From: a virus | Virus genome (UHGV): UHGV-0392477 | DNA length: 39,826 nt | Direction: 5' to 3' (one strand) | In this document: positions 3,260-23,726 of the stretch, in pieces | Layout of the letters: each line of letters opens with the position of its first letter | How positions within the stretch are numbered: position 1 is the first letter of the stretch | The notes under the pieces: model-generated | The model's input: the letters and a program-made list of their open reading frames with translations, nothing else | Databases searched by the model: none | Told to the model about the DNA's origin: nothing | Position numbers and translations under genes: made by a program

Positions 3260-3388
3260 CTACTCTGTAATTAGTTCTTCACATTCCAGGTCAACCAGTA
3301 CCTGGCGCACCTGGTCCTTAATTTTATCCGGGACTTGCCCGAATGTTTTCCTCCCCTTTACAATCAGGGTCGCATAAATGACTGCCAT
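3260..3388 (-). CDS. Tiny conserved phage protein (42 aa, MAVIYATLIVKGRKTFGQVPDKIKDQVRQVLVDLECEELITE). XkdX-like class of small genes typically found between tail fibre and holin
   Basis: Not in the ORF track because it is under 60 aa. RBS GAAAGGAGG 7 nt upstream. Resembles small proteins seen next to holins in clostridial prophages. Confidence 0.55.
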   Translation of the reverse strand: MAVIYATLIVKGRKTFGQVPDKIKDQVRQVLVDLECEELITE

Positions 3389-3429
3389 GGTGTCTGCCTC
3401 CTTTCTCAATAATAAAAAGAGCAGCAGTC

Positions 3430-3904: not shown

Positions 3905-4612
3905 TTATAATGGCCTTGCTAAGATGATTCGGTGGATAGAAGCGTCATATGTAGGGAAATAGCCGCTTATACCGATAAATACTACGGGCTGCCTTGTGAT
4001 GCCAAATATGTCTAAAGCCACTTCTCTGACATTGGAACCTACCGAATAACTATTGCTAGTTGAAGCTTCCCATCTACCGTAATCAGCTCCCTGTTCAACT
4101 ACTCCGACAGTTAACGATACGTCAGACGAATATCTAACATATAATCTTCCATAACTACTGAATGATACAGGTGAACTGAATACTACACCTTTCCTAGCAT
4201 TCTGACTAGCGTTTGCTTTGAAAGATATAGTGTTTCCAACATTCACGTAATCTGTATATAAACCATTGTAATTGATTCCGGAAGTATTCCCATCTAAAAA
4301 TATGTTATAGTACAGATCCAACCACCCCTCGAATGTGCCTGCACGTCCAAAGATGGTCACTCCTCTTTTTATATTCCAGGGCTGTAAATTTCCATCACCC
4401 ACGATTGTCTGGTTTCCGGTCAGATACTGGTTGGCGGCTATTACCTGGTCATAGTTCTGCCCGTAGTAGGTTGCAGCTCCTTTTTCAGCCATAGTTCCTG
4501 TCAACGGATTTCCGTCTCTATCAACAATCACTTTTCCCTTGCGTACATCCGACGCGGCCGCTGTTATTACATCCAGGTCAGCTCCTCCACTGCCATGTAT
4601 AATTGCTTTCAA
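3905..4612 (-). CDS. Putative tail fibre or receptor-binding protein
   Basis: Assigned by position downstream of the tail tip genes. Gly/Asn/Tyr-rich beta-type composition. Confidence 0.5.
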   Translation of the reverse strand: MKAIIHGSGGADLDVITAAASDVRKGKVIVDRDGNPLTGTMAEKGAATYYGQNYDQVIAANQYLTGNQTIVGDGNLQPWNIKRGVTIFGRAGTFEGWLDLYYNIFLDGNTSGINYNGLYTDYVNVGNTISFKANASQNARKGVVFSSPVSFSSYGRLYVRYSSDVSLTVGVVEQGADYGRWEASTSNSYSVGSNVREVALDIFGITRQPVVFIGISGYFPTYDASIHRIILARPL

Positions 4613-5493: not shown

Positions 5494-8218
5494 AACTCAT
5501 GTCCCTCCTTGCCTTGATGGTACCGCTAAGCCCGCCATTAAATTTCAGGGTATGGTCCGTTACCCGTATCAGCAGGTCAGGCACATACTTATTTTCCAGG
5601 AATGCTATGTCGTTGGCATCAATCCGTGGCTCTCCCCGGTATGACAGGTCATATTCCCGGTCTGATTTCATGTAGTCCCCAATCCAATCCGCCAGGTTCG
5701 CGGCATGGACCGTGTCGGACACAAGCGGATTATTCCACGCCTCCAGGCTGCCGGTAGGATTTAGCTGTCTGCTTACCTTGGACTGGGTAGTAACATATTC
5801 CCTGCCTGTCACGACCACCTCTGTCGGCCCTGTGATTCCTGTAAGCTCCACCGTTGCGTAATAGGCACTACTATCTACAATCTCACACCCATATTTCGGG
5901 ATACTTGCAATACCAGTGAAATAGCCGATGAACTTATCACACCACTCTATATCCGGTTCATTCCCGATTCCCCAAGCTGCTGTCAAATCTACCAAAAGAA
6001 GTGAATCTATATAAAGCCTTTTGTTTCCATAGGTATAAATCCTTAGGTCCCACTCTCCTGTTGCCTCAACCGTGTCAATGGCTGATTTGGTATGCCACAC
6101 TCCATCTGGCGCAATAGCCTCTGGACGTAGATTAATATTAAATGATTCTCTATTGGCAATCGCCCTGACCAAATCGCATTCATCATTTCCCGAATACTCA
6201 CCGGGTGATTCCTCCCGCATGAAATTCCCCCGCAAGTAATATTTATGTCCGGATATCATCTGCACAGTTTGTACTATGTGGACTGCGTTTCCATCTTCCG
6301 AGACAACGTATGTGCATTTTCTGGCTGCGTCATACTGTGCGTTGAGCCATCCGGTCACGCCGGTATCAAAAGACCCGTTCTGAACCATATTGGTTGCCTC
6401 CACATAAACCGGGACGTATGTCTTTAAATCATAGGATGGATTAGAAAAATAAAACGTATATCGGTTGTCTAAAGCGGTTACACTTATGGTCTCCCTCGCC
6501 AGCTCCTTTGCATCCTCTGTACTGAGATTGTATATGGTACGTACGACCTGCAGTTCCCTAACCTTGGCCAGCTGCGTGCCCTTTGGTGTCTTGGTCAGCT
6601 CCACACCATATTCCAAGACGTAATCTGTGCTATCCCCAAAGGTTATGTTGTCCAGGGTAACCCGGTTGTTTGGACAGCCCTTGGTAAATTCCAGCACCAG
6701 GTAATCGAACTCCGGGAACTCATGGCTGACCACATAGGTCCGCGTGAGCCCCGAAACCGTGTAGTCCTCCTGCAGCTCACCGTCGTAGTAGGAATGGAAC
6801 ACGACCGTATCCGGCCAGTTCCGACCAAATTCTAGGGTAAGACCGAAGCATTTGTACGCTGCCTCCATGGTAATTCCGACTGTGGGGTTGTCTGCAAACA
6901 ACCCATTATCTCCAGCGACGGCCTCAGATACATAGCCCGTATTGAGATATGTGATTCCATCGGTCTGCCTTGGAAGGAAATATTGTGTACCGGATACACC
7001 TGTATAATCCTGGCCAGACAGGGCATAAGTTTCCTTTTCCGCATGTTCCAGAATGGCTGCCGCATGGGAAAAGTATGTCTCGTTGTCAGATGCCGCTGAC
7101 ATATCCGGCACAAAACTGGATTTAAGGATTATTCTACCAGCCCGGTTCTGATACAGGATACACCTGCCAGCATTAGCAATCAGCTGCAGAGCTTCCTTAT
7201 GCGTTACTACCGGCATCGGATTAACCACCAGAACGTCCTTAAGATATGGATCTATCCAGTAGTCTCGGTAATCCACCTGGGCATCCGCCAGGACGTCCAC
7301 TGCTATGTCATACAGGCTCATACCATTCGGATGGTACTGGCCGCGGTAATATGTACTGTCCATCCCATCAAAACAATCCGATGCCTGGAAATCCATCTCT
7401 GTATCATCAGCTGACCATGATTTCAGTGCGAGTGACGTTCCCGGAATCCACTCAATCGTCCCATCATCCATGGCTTGACCATAAAGGACCTCAACTTGTT
7501 GGCCAATCTCCAAAAAGTTTACCGTGCTCTCCTCATTCTCCACGTCATAGGCCCTGTCCTTGTTATCCACAGTCACATCAAAATCAATAGTAGGCAGCTC
7601 CTCCGATATCGGACTGATATGCTCTTTCTTAGTTGCAGACAATATTTTATTGCTGTCAAAATAGACACCAATACCCATGGTAATCTGATTGATGCGGAAC
7701 CGGCTCCGTCCATTGACCATGGCTGCTGGCACAAACCTCAGATAAGTGGCTCCCTCAAAAATCTCCTCCGTCACATAATGGCCATCCGCATTATTCGTTA
7801 CATTCAAGGTCCGGTTGTCTGAAATGATGGTAAATTCTACGGGATATGCCTTGCCAAATTCCACCGTCAGCCCCTTAATATCATATTGAACGGGAAACCG
7901 GATTTCAATTGCCCCCTGAAGGCCATCCGTCACGATTCCCTGGTTGAGCACCACGTCTGCTGCATCCCTGGGAAGGAAGTACATGCTGCCATCCACCGTG
8001 GTATAGTCCTGGTCACAGGTTGCATATAGCTCCTGTACCTTGTAGTTATCCATGGGCTTCACTAGGTCGGAATAATAAGTATACACATCCGGCTCAGGTA
8101 TGTAGGCGGATGCCTGGGCCTGCTGGTTAATCAGGCCGATGGTGACACGCAGGTGGGACAGCGGGTTCTTCCACTTCCTGCGCATCATGTCCTTATATTC
8201 ATTACTGGCTGCCTGCAT
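5456..8218 (-). CDS. Large tail tip/minor structural protein (Tal-like, about 920 aa) with a carbohydrate-binding-module-like segment
   Basis: Sits two genes downstream of the tape measure. NGSFDTGVTGWLNAQ resembles a CBM_4_9-type motif. The likely start is the ATG at 8218, which overlaps the upstream TAA as TAATG and has RBS GGGGTGA. The longer track ORF (start 8299) runs into the upstream gene. Confidence 0.7.
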   Translation of the reverse strand: MQAASNEYKDMMRRKWKNPLSHLRVTIGLINQQAQASAYIPEPDVYTYYSDLVKPMDNYKVQELYATCDQDYTTVDGSMYFLPRDAADVVLNQGIVTDGLQGAIEIRFPVQYDIKGLTVEFGKAYPVEFTIISDNRTLNVTNNADGHYVTEEIFEGATYLRFVPAAMVNGRSRFRINQITMGIGVYFDSNKILSATKKEHISPISEELPTIDFDVTVDNKDRAYDVENEESTVNFLEIGQQVEVLYGQAMDDGTIEWIPGTSLALKSWSADDTEMDFQASDCFDGMDSTYYRGQYHPNGMSLYDIAVDVLADAQVDYRDYWIDPYLKDVLVVNPMPVVTHKEALQLIANAGRCILYQNRAGRIILKSSFVPDMSAASDNETYFSHAAAILEHAEKETYALSGQDYTGVSGTQYFLPRQTDGITYLNTGYVSEAVAGDNGLFADNPTVGITMEAAYKCFGLTLEFGRNWPDTVVFHSYYDGELQEDYTVSGLTRTYVVSHEFPEFDYLVLEFTKGCPNNRVTLDNITFGDSTDYVLEYGVELTKTPKGTQLAKVRELQVVRTIYNLSTEDAKELARETISVTALDNRYTFYFSNPSYDLKTYVPVYVEATNMVQNGSFDTGVTGWLNAQYDAARKCTYVVSEDGNAVHIVQTVQMISGHKYYLRGNFMREESPGEYSGNDECDLVRAIANRESFNINLRPEAIAPDGVWHTKSAIDTVEATGEWDLRIYTYGNKRLYIDSLLLVDLTAAWGIGNEPDIEWCDKFIGYFTGIASIPKYGCEIVDSSAYYATVELTGITGPTEVVVTGREYVTTQSKVSRQLNPTGSLEAWNNPLVSDTVHAANLADWIGDYMKSDREYDLSYRGEPRIDANDIAFLENKYVPDLLIRVTDHTLKFNGGLSGTIKARRDMSYVATAKNRLAGQ

Positions 8219-20885: not shown

Positions 20886-22231
20886 TTCTTCTCAGCCTCC
20901 TCGAATCCAATCAGGTTCCGGTATGGTATCCAGGCATACTGATTGGCATTAATGGTATGGTCGTTCCTGTCCTCCGGCTTGTCCTTCTCGTCATCCCAGG
21001 AGTACCGGTCCAACTCGGACAGATGCTCCACACAGGTATCCACTACCAGGTAACACCCCTGCTGTATCCAGCCCAGCTGCAGGTTGATACGGTCGATGAT
21101 TCCCAGCTGCTTGTACGCATCCCAGAAGTTATACAGACAGCCCTTAAGCCGCTTGTATTTGCGTAGCTCCGTGATGGTCGCCTGGTCCGCATTGTCTATG
21201 TATATATCTTTCGCAAAACCCCAGTCCTTGCGGCACTGCTCCAGAAAGGCCACGAACTTGACTGCTGTGTCACTAGGGGCCAGTGGGACATCCAGTTTGG
21301 CGTTGTTGTAGACCTTCTCAGCCAGGGTAACAAGCTTTCTGTCCTCCGTGATGCCCTGGAATATCATAGCTATGGTATCTGGGGACTTAGAGGAGTAGGA
21401 TGTGTCCAGGGCGGCAGTGAACTTTTTGAATTTCAGTGCCTTGGCCTGCTTGACTGTGATGACATGCTTAGACCGCTCGAAGTTGCTGAAGATCAGGCCG
21501 GTTGCCTTGCCTCTCAAGCCCTGGATCTTGTTTTTCCAGATCTTTGTGCCCTTCGGCGTGTTCGTCATAATCTGGTCCAGCTTCTCCTTACTCAGGCCCA
21601 GATTATGGGCAAAAGAAAAGAACCAATGCACCCAACCGGGTTTTGGTTCCTCCTGTAATTCATCCATTATCTCTTTTGGTGTTTCATCTTCCCACTCAGG
21701 CAGTGGCCTGGAACAGTTGATATACTCCTTATACACATCCAGGCCCGGGTCATCCGGGTTGAGCGTGGCCATCAGGTAATCGCTTCTCATGGCGGCCTCA
21801 CGCACAAACTCAATGTCTGCCGTGTTAATCTCATCAATGTACAAGCATCCGTACTGGCCGCCCAGGGCATCCTTCCACTTGCGCTTGTTGCCGTAGCCGA
21901 CAACAAAGATTATCTTATCGCCGCCGGATGTGTGGAATAGGATGTGAGGCATGTTATATCCACCGCCGCCGTTGCCTTTGTACTCCACCAGCACGCCGAA
22001 GTCATCCAGGATGCCCAGGTCCTTCTGGATGATGTTCTTCTCGGCGGCGCCGGTGTCATCCGCAGCCAGGATGTGCAGCTTTTTGGGCGATTCCGCTACC
22101 TTTAGCATGAATTTGAATAACCCCACCGTGGTCTTGCCGGCCGCCGTGGTACCCTCCAGGAACTCCATCGGGGCATCACAGCGCAGGAACGCCTTGTACT
22201 TATCCGACAGCAGTAATCTACCCGCGCTCAT
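20882..22231 (-). CDS. terL: Terminase large subunit
   Basis: Walker A GTTAAGKTT. 449 aa. Overlaps terS and portal. Confidence 0.9.
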   Translation of the reverse strand: MSAGRLLLSDKYKAFLRCDAPMEFLEGTTAAGKTTVGLFKFMLKVAESPKKLHILAADDTGAAEKNIIQKDLGILDDFGVLVEYKGNGGGGYNMPHILFHTSGGDKIIFVVGYGNKRKWKDALGGQYGCLYIDEINTADIEFVREAAMRSDYLMATLNPDDPGLDVYKEYINCSRPLPEWEDETPKEIMDELQEEPKPGWVHWFFSFAHNLGLSKEKLDQIMTNTPKGTKIWKNKIQGLRGKATGLIFSNFERSKHVITVKQAKALKFKKFTAALDTSYSSKSPDTIAMIFQGITEDRKLVTLAEKVYNNAKLDVPLAPSDTAVKFVAFLEQCRKDWGFAKDIYIDNADQATITELRKYKRLKGCLYNFWDAYKQLGIIDRINLQLGWIQQGCYLVVDTCVEHLSELDRYSWDDEKDKPEDRNDHTINANQYAWIPYRNLIGFEEAEKK

Positions 22232-22671
22232 TACCCACCACCACGCATCTGCTCAAGAAGGTCATCCAGTTTGGTTTTCTCGGTGTTAAGCCCACCGGAC
22301 AAATTATTTTCTACCTTCGTCGTATAGCCATATTTGCTCATCCACAGCCCCGCCAGCTGCGACGGGATTATCTGTAGCTCAAATTTCTTCCTAGCATCAG
22401 CTTCGCACTCCTCTCGTATGCGCGTGACGATGTCCCCATACCTCTTCCTATTCGCATAAGTCTCGTAAAATTTCGACCTTGCAATCCCAAGATATACACA
22501 GAATCCCTCAATGGTGTAGGTAATGCTCCGCTTAAGTTTGGCTGACACAAATTCACTGTTCTTTGAACTAAAGTCATGGGTAAGCACTTCCTGGTTATCA
22601 CATTCCTGTTTGTACGCTTCCCAAAACTGCTCCATTTCTTCTGGGGATTTAATCTTCAATGGTCTTCCCAT
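22231..22671 (-). CDS. terS: Terminase small subunit
   Basis: 146 aa with an N-terminal HTH-like region. Directly upstream of terL. Confidence 0.75.
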   Translation of the reverse strand: MGRPLKIKSPEEMEQFWEAYKQECDNQEVLTHDFSSKNSEFVSAKLKRSITYTIEGFCVYLGIARSKFYETYANRKRYGDIVTRIREECEADARKKFELQIIPSQLAGLWMSKYGYTTKVENNLSGGLNTEKTKLDDLLEQMRGGG

Positions 22672-22772
22672 CCGTGCTCACCTCCTTGCGTCAGTCAAAG
22701 AAAAGAACCCCAGACCTATAATAGCCTGGAGTCCCAGAAAGGAATTTACAATGTCAAATGTATCTGTCTGAA

Positions 22773-22846
22773 TAGCGGGGGCAGGATTTGAACCTGCGGC
22801 CTCCGGGTTATGGGCCCGGCGAGCTGCCAGACTGCTCTACCTCGCA
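22773..22846 (-). tRNA. Initiator-like tRNA-Met (anticodon CAT) with non-canonical positions
   Basis: Minus strand reads TGCGAGG-TA-GAGC-AGTCTGGCA-GCTC-G-CCGGG-CCCATAA-CCCGG-AGGCC-GCAGG-TTCAAAT-CCTGC-CCCCGCT-A. Three consecutive G:C pairs close the anticodon stem. There is a 1:72 mismatch. Strong identity to bacterial tRNA-fMet, but with C33 and an A5:C68 mismatch. Confidence 0.7.
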
Positions 22847-23141
22847 TCAATACCGGCCTATCGCCGGTATGGTCCAACTCACGCCGCGGTTGGCTTACGG
22901 ATACCTTGCACCAGTATGGTATCAACTGGGAGCTGCTCTCTATCCGATTTGCGAAGCTATGAAGAGGCAGGAGAACGTCAGCTTCTAATTAGCCACCAGG
23001 CTGTAACGCCTGGTAGCCGTTATTTGTGGGGAGGATGCAAAATCAATCAGCTTTCCGCTTCATCCAATTCTGCATATTACAATTATAAATCGTCCAAAAG
23101 GACTTATCAAGGACATCATTTTGACGCAGTTTGTCAAGCCC

Positions 23142-23726
23142 TTAATCAAGCATAATTGCATCCGCTCCAAACAGATATATGCTCAGTATCCCAGTGAGCT
23201 CCGTCACCCACCGTCTTGCCGTTCTATCTGAACAATTCAAAAGCTCTCCAATTTCGTTAGGCTCCATACCATCAAAGTACCTATACTTAAAAGCCAGATA
23301 CTTCTCATGCGTATTCTTCCGACACTCCTCATCCTCCAGGAGCTTCAAACACTTGTCTATGTGTCCTATCATGACAATACTCCGGAGCTTGCTCTTGAGG
23401 ATACTGTTGATAAAGATATCTTCCTCTGTGAACTCCTCCAGTTCATCGCCATTATCCATGTCGGACAGTTCTGCCACTCCCTCCTCCACGCTCTGACAGA
23501 TGCGGTTATAATTCTCCATCAGCTTCTTGGTGTTCTGGAATACCTTTATTCTCTTTTCCCTCCGGAGTTGCTTCTCATGCTCCTTAAGGGCTTCCCTTGC
23601 GGCCAGCCTGGCCACTTCCTCCAATGCTACCGTCTGTTTCACCGGCATCACCTCCTCCCGCATCCAGGTACGGGCACGCCCAGCACCCGTACCGTATCCT
23701 GCCCTTGTTGTTGCGCTGGCCATCAC
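23142..23726 (-). CDS. ArpU-family (sigma-70 region-4-like) late gene transcriptional activator
   Basis: Sits upstream of terS. C-terminal EPNEIGELLNCSDRTARRWVTELTGIL is an HTH. The real start is probably internal (ATG at about 23648-23663, preceded by GGGAGGAGG). Confidence 0.65.
   Translation of the reverse strand: MMASATTRAGYGTGAGRARTWMREEVMPVKQTVALEEVARLAAREALKEHEKQLRREKRIKVFQNTKKLMENYNRICQSVEEGVAELSDMDNGDELEEFTEEDIFINSILKSKLRSIVMIGHIDKCLKLLEDEECRKNTHEKYLAFKYRYFDGMEPNEIGELLNCSDRTARRWVTELTGILSIYLFGADAIMLD

Follow-up and report, generated by a model that had tools for sequence, protein, structure and literature searches.

UHGV-0392477, a UHGV virus genome of 39,826 nucleotides (nt) that is referred to here as the window, is a temperate siphovirus-like prophage with nearly all of its genes on the minus strand, and just ahead of its packaging genes lies a single tRNA gene, read here as an initiator-type tRNA-Met(CAU) with C at position 33. 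The gene is 74 nt long and occupies positions 22773-22846 of the minus strand. ARAGORN calls a tRNA-Met(CAT) with exactly these ends as the sole tRNA of the window, and the Rfam tRNA family RF00005 matches the same coordinates over model positions 1-71 of 71 with 56.3 bits (gathering score, 29; E=1.1e-9). An earlier note on this DNA, made from the letters alone, had proposed a phage-borne initiator-type tRNA-Met at this place and had suggested scoring with a covariance model; the ARAGORN call, the Rfam score above the tRNA cut-off and the full initiator signature described below bear that proposal out.

Read position by position, the RNA strand begins UGCGAGG-UA-GAGC-AGUCUGGCA-GCUC-G-CCGGG-CCCAUAA-CCCGG and continues, after CCCGG, with AGGCC-GCAGG-UUCAAAU-CCUGC-CCCCGCU-A. 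The acceptor stem (UGCGAGG/CCCCGCU) opens with a U1•U72 mismatch, proceeds through G2:C71, C3:G70 and G4:C69, is broken by an A5•C68 mismatch and closes with G6:C67 and G7:C66. The D stem (GAGC/GCUC) gives A11:U24, the anticodon stem (CCGGG/CCCGG) gives G29:C41, G30:C40 and G31:C39, and the anticodon loop (CCCAUAA) sets C32 and C33 before the CAU anticodon and A37 and A38 after it; the T loop is UUCAAAU, the discriminator is A73 and CCA is not encoded, the trailer reading UUCAGAC. Tertiary contacts in tRNAs are expected to involve U8, A14, G18, G19, G15:C48 and the T loop, and all of these are intact here, G15:C48 as a possible pair. The RNA-strand reading contains both of the departures singled out in the earlier note, C33 and the broken 5:68 pair, together with the three anticodon-stem G:C pairs and the 1:72 mismatch that the note had described without stating that the mismatch is U•U or that the strand is minus.

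Initiator identity and conservation of the gene

Methionyl-tRNA synthetase (MetRS) recognises its substrates by the CAU anticodon together with A73, and A11:U24 marks initiators whereas elongators carry Y11:R24. The window tRNA has C34, A35, U36 and A73, and its D stem holds A11:U24. Further determinants of bacterial initiators are the three G:C pairs 29:41, 30:40 and 31:39, a mismatch at 1:72, and the 2:71 and 3:70 pairs (PMC5389676); the three consecutive G:C pairs are present, as are the formyltransferase determinants, namely a non-Watson-Crick 1:72 (U•U), G2:C71 and C3:G70. Judged by sequence, every tested bacterial-initiator hallmark is found in this tRNA, and the near-universal U33 is the one tRNA feature that is missing. 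Because U33 is a conserved feature of tRNAs at large and no initiator identity element, its replacement by C33 is taken as a variant that does not exclude initiator function. Initiators of the eukaryotic or archaeal type carry an A1:U72 pair, with A54 and A60 in the eukaryotes; such a type is ruled out by U1•U72 and by a T loop with U54 and U60 (UUCAAAU), on account of which the tRNA is considered bacterial in type.

Among known systems, the closest are the bacterial tRNAfMet genes (E. coli metZWV/metY and the Firmicutes loci L440 and L441), with which the phage gene shares CAU, G29-31:C39-41, a non-Watson-Crick 1:72, G2:C71, C3:G70, G4:C69, A11:U24, A73 and the UUCAAAU T loop and, as in Firmicutes chromosomal initiators, a CCA end that is not encoded. 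It departs from them in having C33 instead of U33, U1•U72 instead of C1•A72 and A5•C68 instead of G5:C68, in A9, C27:G43 and the D loop, and in being solitary, outside any host tRNA/rRNA cluster. Host-type Ser-fMet-Asp-Gly-Ile clusters in Enterococcus and Listeria show C1•A72, G5:C68, U33 and no encoded CCA; roughly 11 positions, 33 among them, separate the window tRNA from Firmicutes host-type initiators, and U33 is likewise found in the initiators of E. coli, S. aureus, A. aeolicus and B. subtilis (PMC8887486).

An identical tRNA occurs in 14 other contigs, comprising six near-identical Logan/ENA phage contigs from independent samples (L001-L006) and eight IMG/VR contigs. When viral contigs were scanned with the D arm only (GTAGAGCAGTCTGGCAGCTC), leaving the anticodon loop unconstrained, 105 were recovered, and among the family members with the GGG:CCC stem (about 46) C33 was found in about 44 and U33 in 2. 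The 5:68 pair varies within this family: 17 contigs have G:C there, 20 have A•C (spread over five sequence backgrounds) and 7 have A:U; given these three states, the A•C of the window tRNA is regarded as a lasting state of a co-varying pair and no private lesion, so that A5•C68 is best described, from the aligned relatives, as a tolerated polymorphic state of that acceptor pair. A decaying copy, which the earlier note had offered as the alternative to a functional gene, is rejected on the strength of the 14 identical contigs and of covariation in both the family and the wider C33 class, and the near-fixation of C33 likewise favours the functional reading. The gene is probably a working one, the more so because the C33 variant recurs in many unrelated phages.

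The family also holds real wrecks, one with a chimeric anticodon arm (L386) and one with a mutated loop (L412). In three further loci (L387, 10467-10540; L419; L433), the same leader and the same acceptor-5' and D arms are followed by different anticodon and T arms, the anticodon arm being AUGGC-CUCAUAA-GCCAU, with U33 and without the three G:C pairs; in the L386 chimera, the junction falls inside the anticodon arm and the stem is broken. Mosaics of the L386 and L387 types suggest that two phage tRNA-Met types have recombined. Another abundant phage tRNA-Met (CGCGGAGTAGAGCAGTCTGGCAGCTCGCTAGCCTCATAAGCTAGAGG...), carried by about 30 IMG/VR contigs of the D-arm scan, has an initiator-like acceptor stem with the 1:72 mismatch and A11:U24 together with an anticodon stem, CUAGC/GCUAG, that lacks GGG:CCC.

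Tentative hosts are indicated by cellular genomes, since tRNAs of the window family were found in Enterocloster aldenensis and Clostridium sp. OF09-36 directly upstream of a terminase/portal/head module recognised with PHROGs. No window-type terminase was matched when these two loci were searched by tblastn with the window proteins. Their gene content suggests that both copies lie in prophages, which points to Lachnospiraceae hosts.

C33 initiators in viruses and cellular genomes

A scan of IMG/VR for the C33 anticodon arm (CCGGGCCCATAACCCGG) returned at least 120 matches, of which 120 were listed; ARAGORN identifies 109 of these as tRNA-Met(CAU), in 72 distinct sequences, and the stretch fetched for 85 of the 109 loci holds no tRNA besides the C33 one. 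Structural parsing of all viral loci yielded 74 unique C33 sequences. Position 1:72 is non-Watson-Crick in 59 of them (U•U in 22, C•U in 13, A•A in 7, A•C in 6 and C•A in 4), and G2:C71 is found in 71, C3:G70 in 69, A11:U24 in 56 and A73 in 72. The mismatch at 1:72 has been retained while the identity of its bases drifts, as selection for initiator function predicts. Applied to 40 C33 sequences, RNAalifold recovers a cloverleaf in which 1:72 is left open and 13 of the 20 pairs show compensatory changes. With position 33 left free (CGGGCNCATAACCCG), a sample of viral contigs gave about 121 matches to initiator-type arms, about 15 with C33 (some 12%) and 103 with U33, and no A33 or G33 inside a tRNA was seen among these matches. 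U72 is commoner in viral C33 initiators (42/74) than in U33 ones (19/62) and C1•A72 is rarer (4/74 against 19/62), in counts that take no account of relatedness.

Initiator-type tRNAs are by no means confined to this prophage: 308 phage records match the window tRNA, several of them of initiator type (including phage D3, Donnerlittchen and mycobacteriophage Erdmann), and more than 200 IMG/VR contigs carry initiator-type tRNAs, so that the earlier note's remark that such a gene is unusual for a phage to supply is not supported. Cultured phages with a C33 initiator-type tRNA-Met are Pseudomonas phage D3 (AF165214.2, 53398-53473), its relative BUCT566 and Janthinobacterium phage Donnerlittchen, in all of which the gene bears the bare annotation 'tRNA-Met'; U33 is found in mycobacteriophage Erdmann, Bordetella phage PHB04, Nocardia phage NTR1 and Pseudomonas phage pf16. 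The tRNA-Met genes of D3, BUCT566 and Donnerlittchen have an anticodon arm identical to that of the window tRNA (CCGGG-CCCAUAA-CCCGG, with C33) and sit, as here, between a late-regulator or nin-type region and late or packaging genes. They differ strongly in their acceptor, D and T arms, and also in their proteobacterial hosts and in encoding CCA; the D3 gene further has C1•U72 and a GAGA/UCUC D arm and, unlike the window copy, belongs to a four-tRNA cluster.

A literature search on C33 or U33C with initiator tRNA and phage, the D3 genome paper lying outside its coverage, found no account of a widespread C33 phage class. Phage-encoded initiator tRNAs, anticodon-loop variation in phage tRNAs and C33 in the initiators of multicellular eukaryotes are already known; what appears to be new is a large and widespread C33 class of phage initiator tRNAs, within which the window gene is ordinary. 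The same CCGGG-CCCAUAA-CCCGG arm is also seen inside a longer hairpin-like element with a closing stem of about 10 bp in three GC-rich viral contigs (L008, ~5500-5600; L017, ~5750-5850; L109, ~7750-7850); neither ARAGORN nor Rfam reports a tRNA there, and the element may be tRNA-like or a mimic of an anticodon arm.

In the scan of cellular genomes for the C33 arm, considered over the matches listed, many matches are apparently native initiators of DPANN archaea and of candidate phyla radiation (CPR) bacteria, or Patescibacteria. These C33 initiators (loci L241-L352) come from Woesearchaeota, Pacearchaeota and Nanoarchaeota and from Falkowbacteria, Uhrbacteria and other Patescibacteria, and from their sequences they appear to be native cellular initiators in many metagenome-assembled genomes (MAGs) of both groups; because they look native, C33 is taken to be compatible with initiation. 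No literature account of native C33 initiators in DPANN or CPR organisms was found. One nearly constant C33 tRNA (UGCGGGGUGGAGCAGUGGUAGCUCG...GGCCGUUCAAAUCGGUC...) recurs in MAGs assigned to different phyla (L244; L270, Vermiphilus; L280; L305 and L316, Omnitrophota; L309; L337); its recurrence might be due to a mobile element or phage, or to an error of binning.

The cassette at the head of the packaging genes

On its 5' side, the tRNA directly abuts a conserved structured leader of about 200 nt (22847-23046, minus strand), in which an 8-bp hairpin lies just ahead of the point where RNase P is presumed to cut. Relatives keep 88-96% identity to the leader even after replacement of the sequence farther upstream, its minimum free energy is below that of shuffled sequences (z=-2.94), and of the 49 pairs that RNAalifold predicts, 8 show compensatory changes. 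Among the loci compared, nhmmer detected full-length copies in about 36, and in each one with readable flanking sequence the leader runs straight into a tRNA of the window family; L107, L023, L047, L010, L079 and L018 are among the relatives that have it, and most C33 initiator tRNAs of other phages are without it. The leader gave no Rfam match at E<=5 and a search for open reading frames (ORFs) within it found no credible one; for the 300-nt gap as a whole, Rfam at the gathering threshold and at E<=5 returned the tRNA alone and no credible small ORFs were seen, so another known RNA was rejected. From its conservation and predicted structure, the leader may be a new phage RNA motif. A second leader type (L037, L102, L015 and others) has only the first hairpin in common with it.

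Farther upstream, about 235 nt from the tRNA, a consensus scan places a sigma-70-like promoter candidate (TTGATA-17-TATAAT; 11/12 matches; 23082-23110, minus strand), and 12 relatives have a promoter-like site of this kind (TTGATA or TTGTCA, 17-nt spacer, TATAAT), its offset being unchanged in those with this upstream type and close to that in two others. On the 3' side, alignment of relatives defines a conserved trailer of about 24 nt (UUCAGACAGAUACAUUUGACAUUG; 22749-22772, minus strand) that stays 92-96% identical in relatives with another terS and other downstream sequence. In the interval separating the tRNA from terS, the consensus scan also marks a terminator-like element (22694-22735, minus strand), consisting of a hairpin of 13 pairs, six of them G:C (22735-22704), and then UUUUCUUU; in every relative, a GC-rich hairpin with a U-run likewise follows the tRNA and precedes the first packaging gene, and these hairpins are non-homologous. 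Promoter, leader, tRNA and terminator would together form one transcription unit.

The first packaging gene downstream is the terminase small subunit gene terS (22231-22671, minus strand; phrog_606, E=6e-17; PF16677 GP3_package on an identical protein), whose start codon at 22671 is accompanied by a ribosome-binding site, with terL and the portal gene further downstream. Upstream lies a gene for a 194-amino-acid (aa) protein (23142-23726, minus strand), a possible late regulator that matches phrog_1558 (E=7e-44; function unknown) and, below threshold, the Pfam family Sigma70_r4_2 (20.7 bits; cut-off, 25.7) and the NCBIfam models TIGR02937 (23.9 bits; cut-off, 42.9) and TIGR02999 (E<=0.01). It may be a late regulator with weak similarity to sigma-70 region 4. 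The earlier note had placed the tRNA in an ArpU-terS gap: its position between a putative late regulator and terS stands, and the ArpU label is not confirmed, as NCBIfam at E<=0.01 yields only the two sub-threshold sigma-70 models.

In related phages, the tRNA lies just upstream of terS/terL at terL identities of 95-99%, 79%, ~61% and ~23-26%, including cases in which terS has been replaced. Across the phage genomes compared, unrelated phage groups repeatedly show an initiator-type tRNA placed just before the packaging genes. Unannotated initiator-like tRNA-Met genes were also seen just upstream of the terminase in Xanthomonas phage Elanor (L436; ON189045.1, ~4037-4113), Pseudomonas phage PaMx74 (L437; JQ067093.2, ~3357-3429) and Clavibacter phage CN1A (L438). 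Lambdoid phages offer a comparable gene layout, with tRNAs in the leader of the late transcript (ileZ-argN-argO of Stx phage 933W) and the PR'-6S RNA-tR' unit of lambda. Leaving Q/qut-type antitermination aside, the likeness consists in a short, promoter-proximal, terminator-ended unit that follows the late regulator and precedes the first late genes; the lambdoid leader tRNAs are elongators, and the structured leader of the window has no known counterpart.

Elsewhere in the window, protein family scans identify an integrase gene at 97-1302 on the plus strand, and the replication genes encode DNA polymerase A, a primase-helicase, an SNF2 helicase, a DUF2800 nuclease and a single-stranded DNA-binding protein. 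At the right end are genes for a Cro/CI-type helix-turn-helix protein and an ImmA/IrrE-like peptidase. Scans against PHROGs, Pfam and NCBIfam covered 29 window proteins, from the packaging, replication, lysogeny and small early genes; the only functions recognised were those of replication, lysogeny and packaging, and several small ORFs had no match. The segment 37000-39826 has a G+C content of about 37%, compared with about 50%, and its plus-strand genes encode the ImmA/IrrE-like peptidase, an unknown 193-aa protein and a choline-binding-repeat protein; it has the look of a lysogeny or cargo module that came from elsewhere.

Proposed function and competing explanations

The gene most likely encodes a working phage tRNAfMet-type initiator in a temperate siphovirus of Lachnospiraceae-like gut Firmicutes, and we infer from its sequence features that this tRNA-Met(CAU) is expressed, processed, charged and formylated. 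It would be transcribed within a short minus-strand unit comprising the promoter-like site (23110-23082), the leader of about 200 nt, the tRNA and the hairpin (22735-22704), just ahead of terS. Cleavage by RNase P would generate the 5' end, and an RNase Z-type cut after A73 followed by CCA addition, proposed because CCA is not encoded, would generate the 3' end. The host MetRS would charge the tRNA through its CAU anticodon and A73, the host formyltransferase (Fmt) would formylate it through the 1:72 mismatch, G2:C71, C3:G70 and A11:U24, and the three G:C pairs would give it entry into the 30S P site.

Several observations weigh against this interpretation or against a selected role for C33. 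The minimum-free-energy fold of the tRNA is the cloverleaf, with an energy no better than that of shuffled sequences (z=-0.06), so the assignment rests on the covariance model and the relatives and not on folding energy; moreover, two of the seven acceptor positions, 1:72 and 5:68, are unpaired. One promoter-like site is the number expected from shuffled sequence, and both promoter and terminator are consensus matches only. No tRNase, tRNA-modifying enzyme, formyltransferase, deformylase or MetRS is recognisable among the 29 scanned window proteins. The contrast between phage and host at position 33 is drawn with Enterococcus and Listeria as stand-ins and with the bacteria listed in PMC8887486. 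When sequences were grouped by similarity outside the anticodon arm (at most 4 differences over 43 compared positions), C33 and U33 proved to be interspersed, 48 clusters containing C33 and 6 being mixed. A single C33 clade is rejected by this clustering, and given the interspersion C33 has arisen or been exchanged repeatedly, a pattern that, as far as the clusters tell, fits neutral toggling as well as repeated selection.

Of the rival explanations, a non-translational one survives best, though it is improbable: the chief task of the tRNA would be to process or punctuate RNA, with cleavage by RNase P and RNase Z releasing or stabilising the leader or setting the 5' end of the late packaging mRNA, or tRNA and terminator together could gate late transcription, as in the lambda PR'-6S-tR' unit. 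Such a role would accord with the constant fusion of this tRNA to a conserved, co-varying leader that lacks an Rfam match, with a hairpin and U-run kept 3' of the tRNA in all relatives despite differing sequence, and with a position at the head of the late or packaging operon that recurs in unrelated phages. It would, however, render superfluous the CAU anticodon, the three G:C pairs, the 1:72 mismatch, G2:C71, C3:G70, A11:U24 and A73, which are nevertheless kept across 74 sequences, and the leader is absent from most C33 initiator tRNAs of other phages. Processing and translation are compatible, and a processing role may coexist with initiation; alone, it leaves the full initiator signature unexplained.

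Less probable still is a pseudo-tRNA, that is, a captured host initiator that has fallen out of use and accumulated C33, A5•C68 and U1•U72. These three departures from the Firmicutes-type initiators of L440 and L441, the two unpaired acceptor positions and the wrecks L386 and L412 within the family are what such decay might produce, but the Rfam score lies well over the cut-off, the sequence is unchanged in 14 further contigs, A•C occurs on five sequence backgrounds beside G:C and A:U states, nearly all family members share C33, a base that also turns up in phage tRNAs of very different sequence, and the residues expected in tertiary contacts are intact. Slightly less probable again is an elongator tRNA-Met or a tRNA-Ile2 (CAU converted to lysidine) that compensates for codon usage. 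ARAGORN resolves only 'Met (CAT)', and sister phage tRNAs with the same acceptor and D arms have anticodon stems without the three G:C pairs. A 1:72 mismatch disfavours EF-Tu binding, and E. coli tRNA-Ile2 has a paired 1:72 and the acceptor-stem determinants of TilS, C4:G69 and C5:G68; the latter are absent here, where U1•U72, G4:C69 and A5•C68 rule out tRNA-Ile2. The 1:72 mismatch, the three G:C pairs and A11:U24, taken together, define initiators (PMC5389676). A host tRNA fragment or an att-site duplicate left by integration, which the earlier note had also raised and which might be expected of a temperate phage with an integrase, many viral-contig U33 matches lying at contig ends as att-site tRNAs do, is effectively refuted by a complete 74-nt cloverleaf at 22.8 kb, about 21 kb from the integrase gene (97-1302) and inside the phage between regulator and terS, by its synteny in many phages and by the roughly 11 positions at which it differs from Firmicutes host-type initiators.

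As regards C33 itself, TsaBCDE no longer forms t6A37 in vitro on an E. coli initiator tRNA with U33C (PMC8887486), VapC toxins cleave tRNAfMet (PMC10264068), and anticodon-loop changes in phage tRNAs have been proposed as a means of evading host tRNases (PMC10264068). The reason preferred here, though with low confidence, is that C33 would be kept as evasion, because enzymes that attack or modify the anticodon loop of the host's U33 initiator would work poorly on the phage copy, with VapC-type or other anticodon-loop tRNases and the t6A37 machinery as candidates. Equally tentative is the broader suggestion that C33 would be a selected counter-defence or takeover feature in many phage lineages, through which initiation could continue with the host pool shut down. 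No nuclease with specificity for position 33 is known to us. The data are also explained by a rival reason, relaxed constraint on this position in a tRNA that takes no part in A-site decoding, which fits the restriction to pyrimidines and the mixing of C33 and U33 sequences. Other phage tRNAs of the nuclease-evading kind are those of phage T5, reportedly acting against PARIS and retron effectors. The window tRNA may be compared with the phage tRNAs proposed to evade nucleases (van den Berg et al., 2023, PMC10264068) in that its anticodon loop departs at one conserved position from the host-type initiator, as represented by Enterococcus and Listeria; in the 2023 work, Shigella phages are reported mostly to avoid encoding tRNA-fMet, and C33 is not mentioned. 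Human tRNAiMet is a cytoplasmic initiator with C33 and three G:C pairs (PMC8887486), which is a parallel to the window tRNA and not common membership, the eukaryotic A1:U72 and A54/A60 being absent here.

If the counter-defence reading of C33 were true, the cassette might also protect lysogens, because it appears to have its own promoter-like site. U33 is, to our knowledge, among the most conserved nucleotides of tRNAs, the only well-known exception being the cytoplasmic initiator of multicellular eukaryotes. Set beside that exception, the phages provide a sizeable and diverse group of initiators, from a gut prophage to the classical phage D3, that carry C33 yet keep the bacterial initiator determinants. 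Annotation is corrected as well, since genes for C33 initiators have been labelled 'tRNA-Met' only or missed. These genes offer a natural system in which to study the role of position 33 in P-site initiation, the initiator tRNA as a battleground between phages and tRNA-targeting defences, and the reason why temperate phages with a single tRNA so often carry an initiator.

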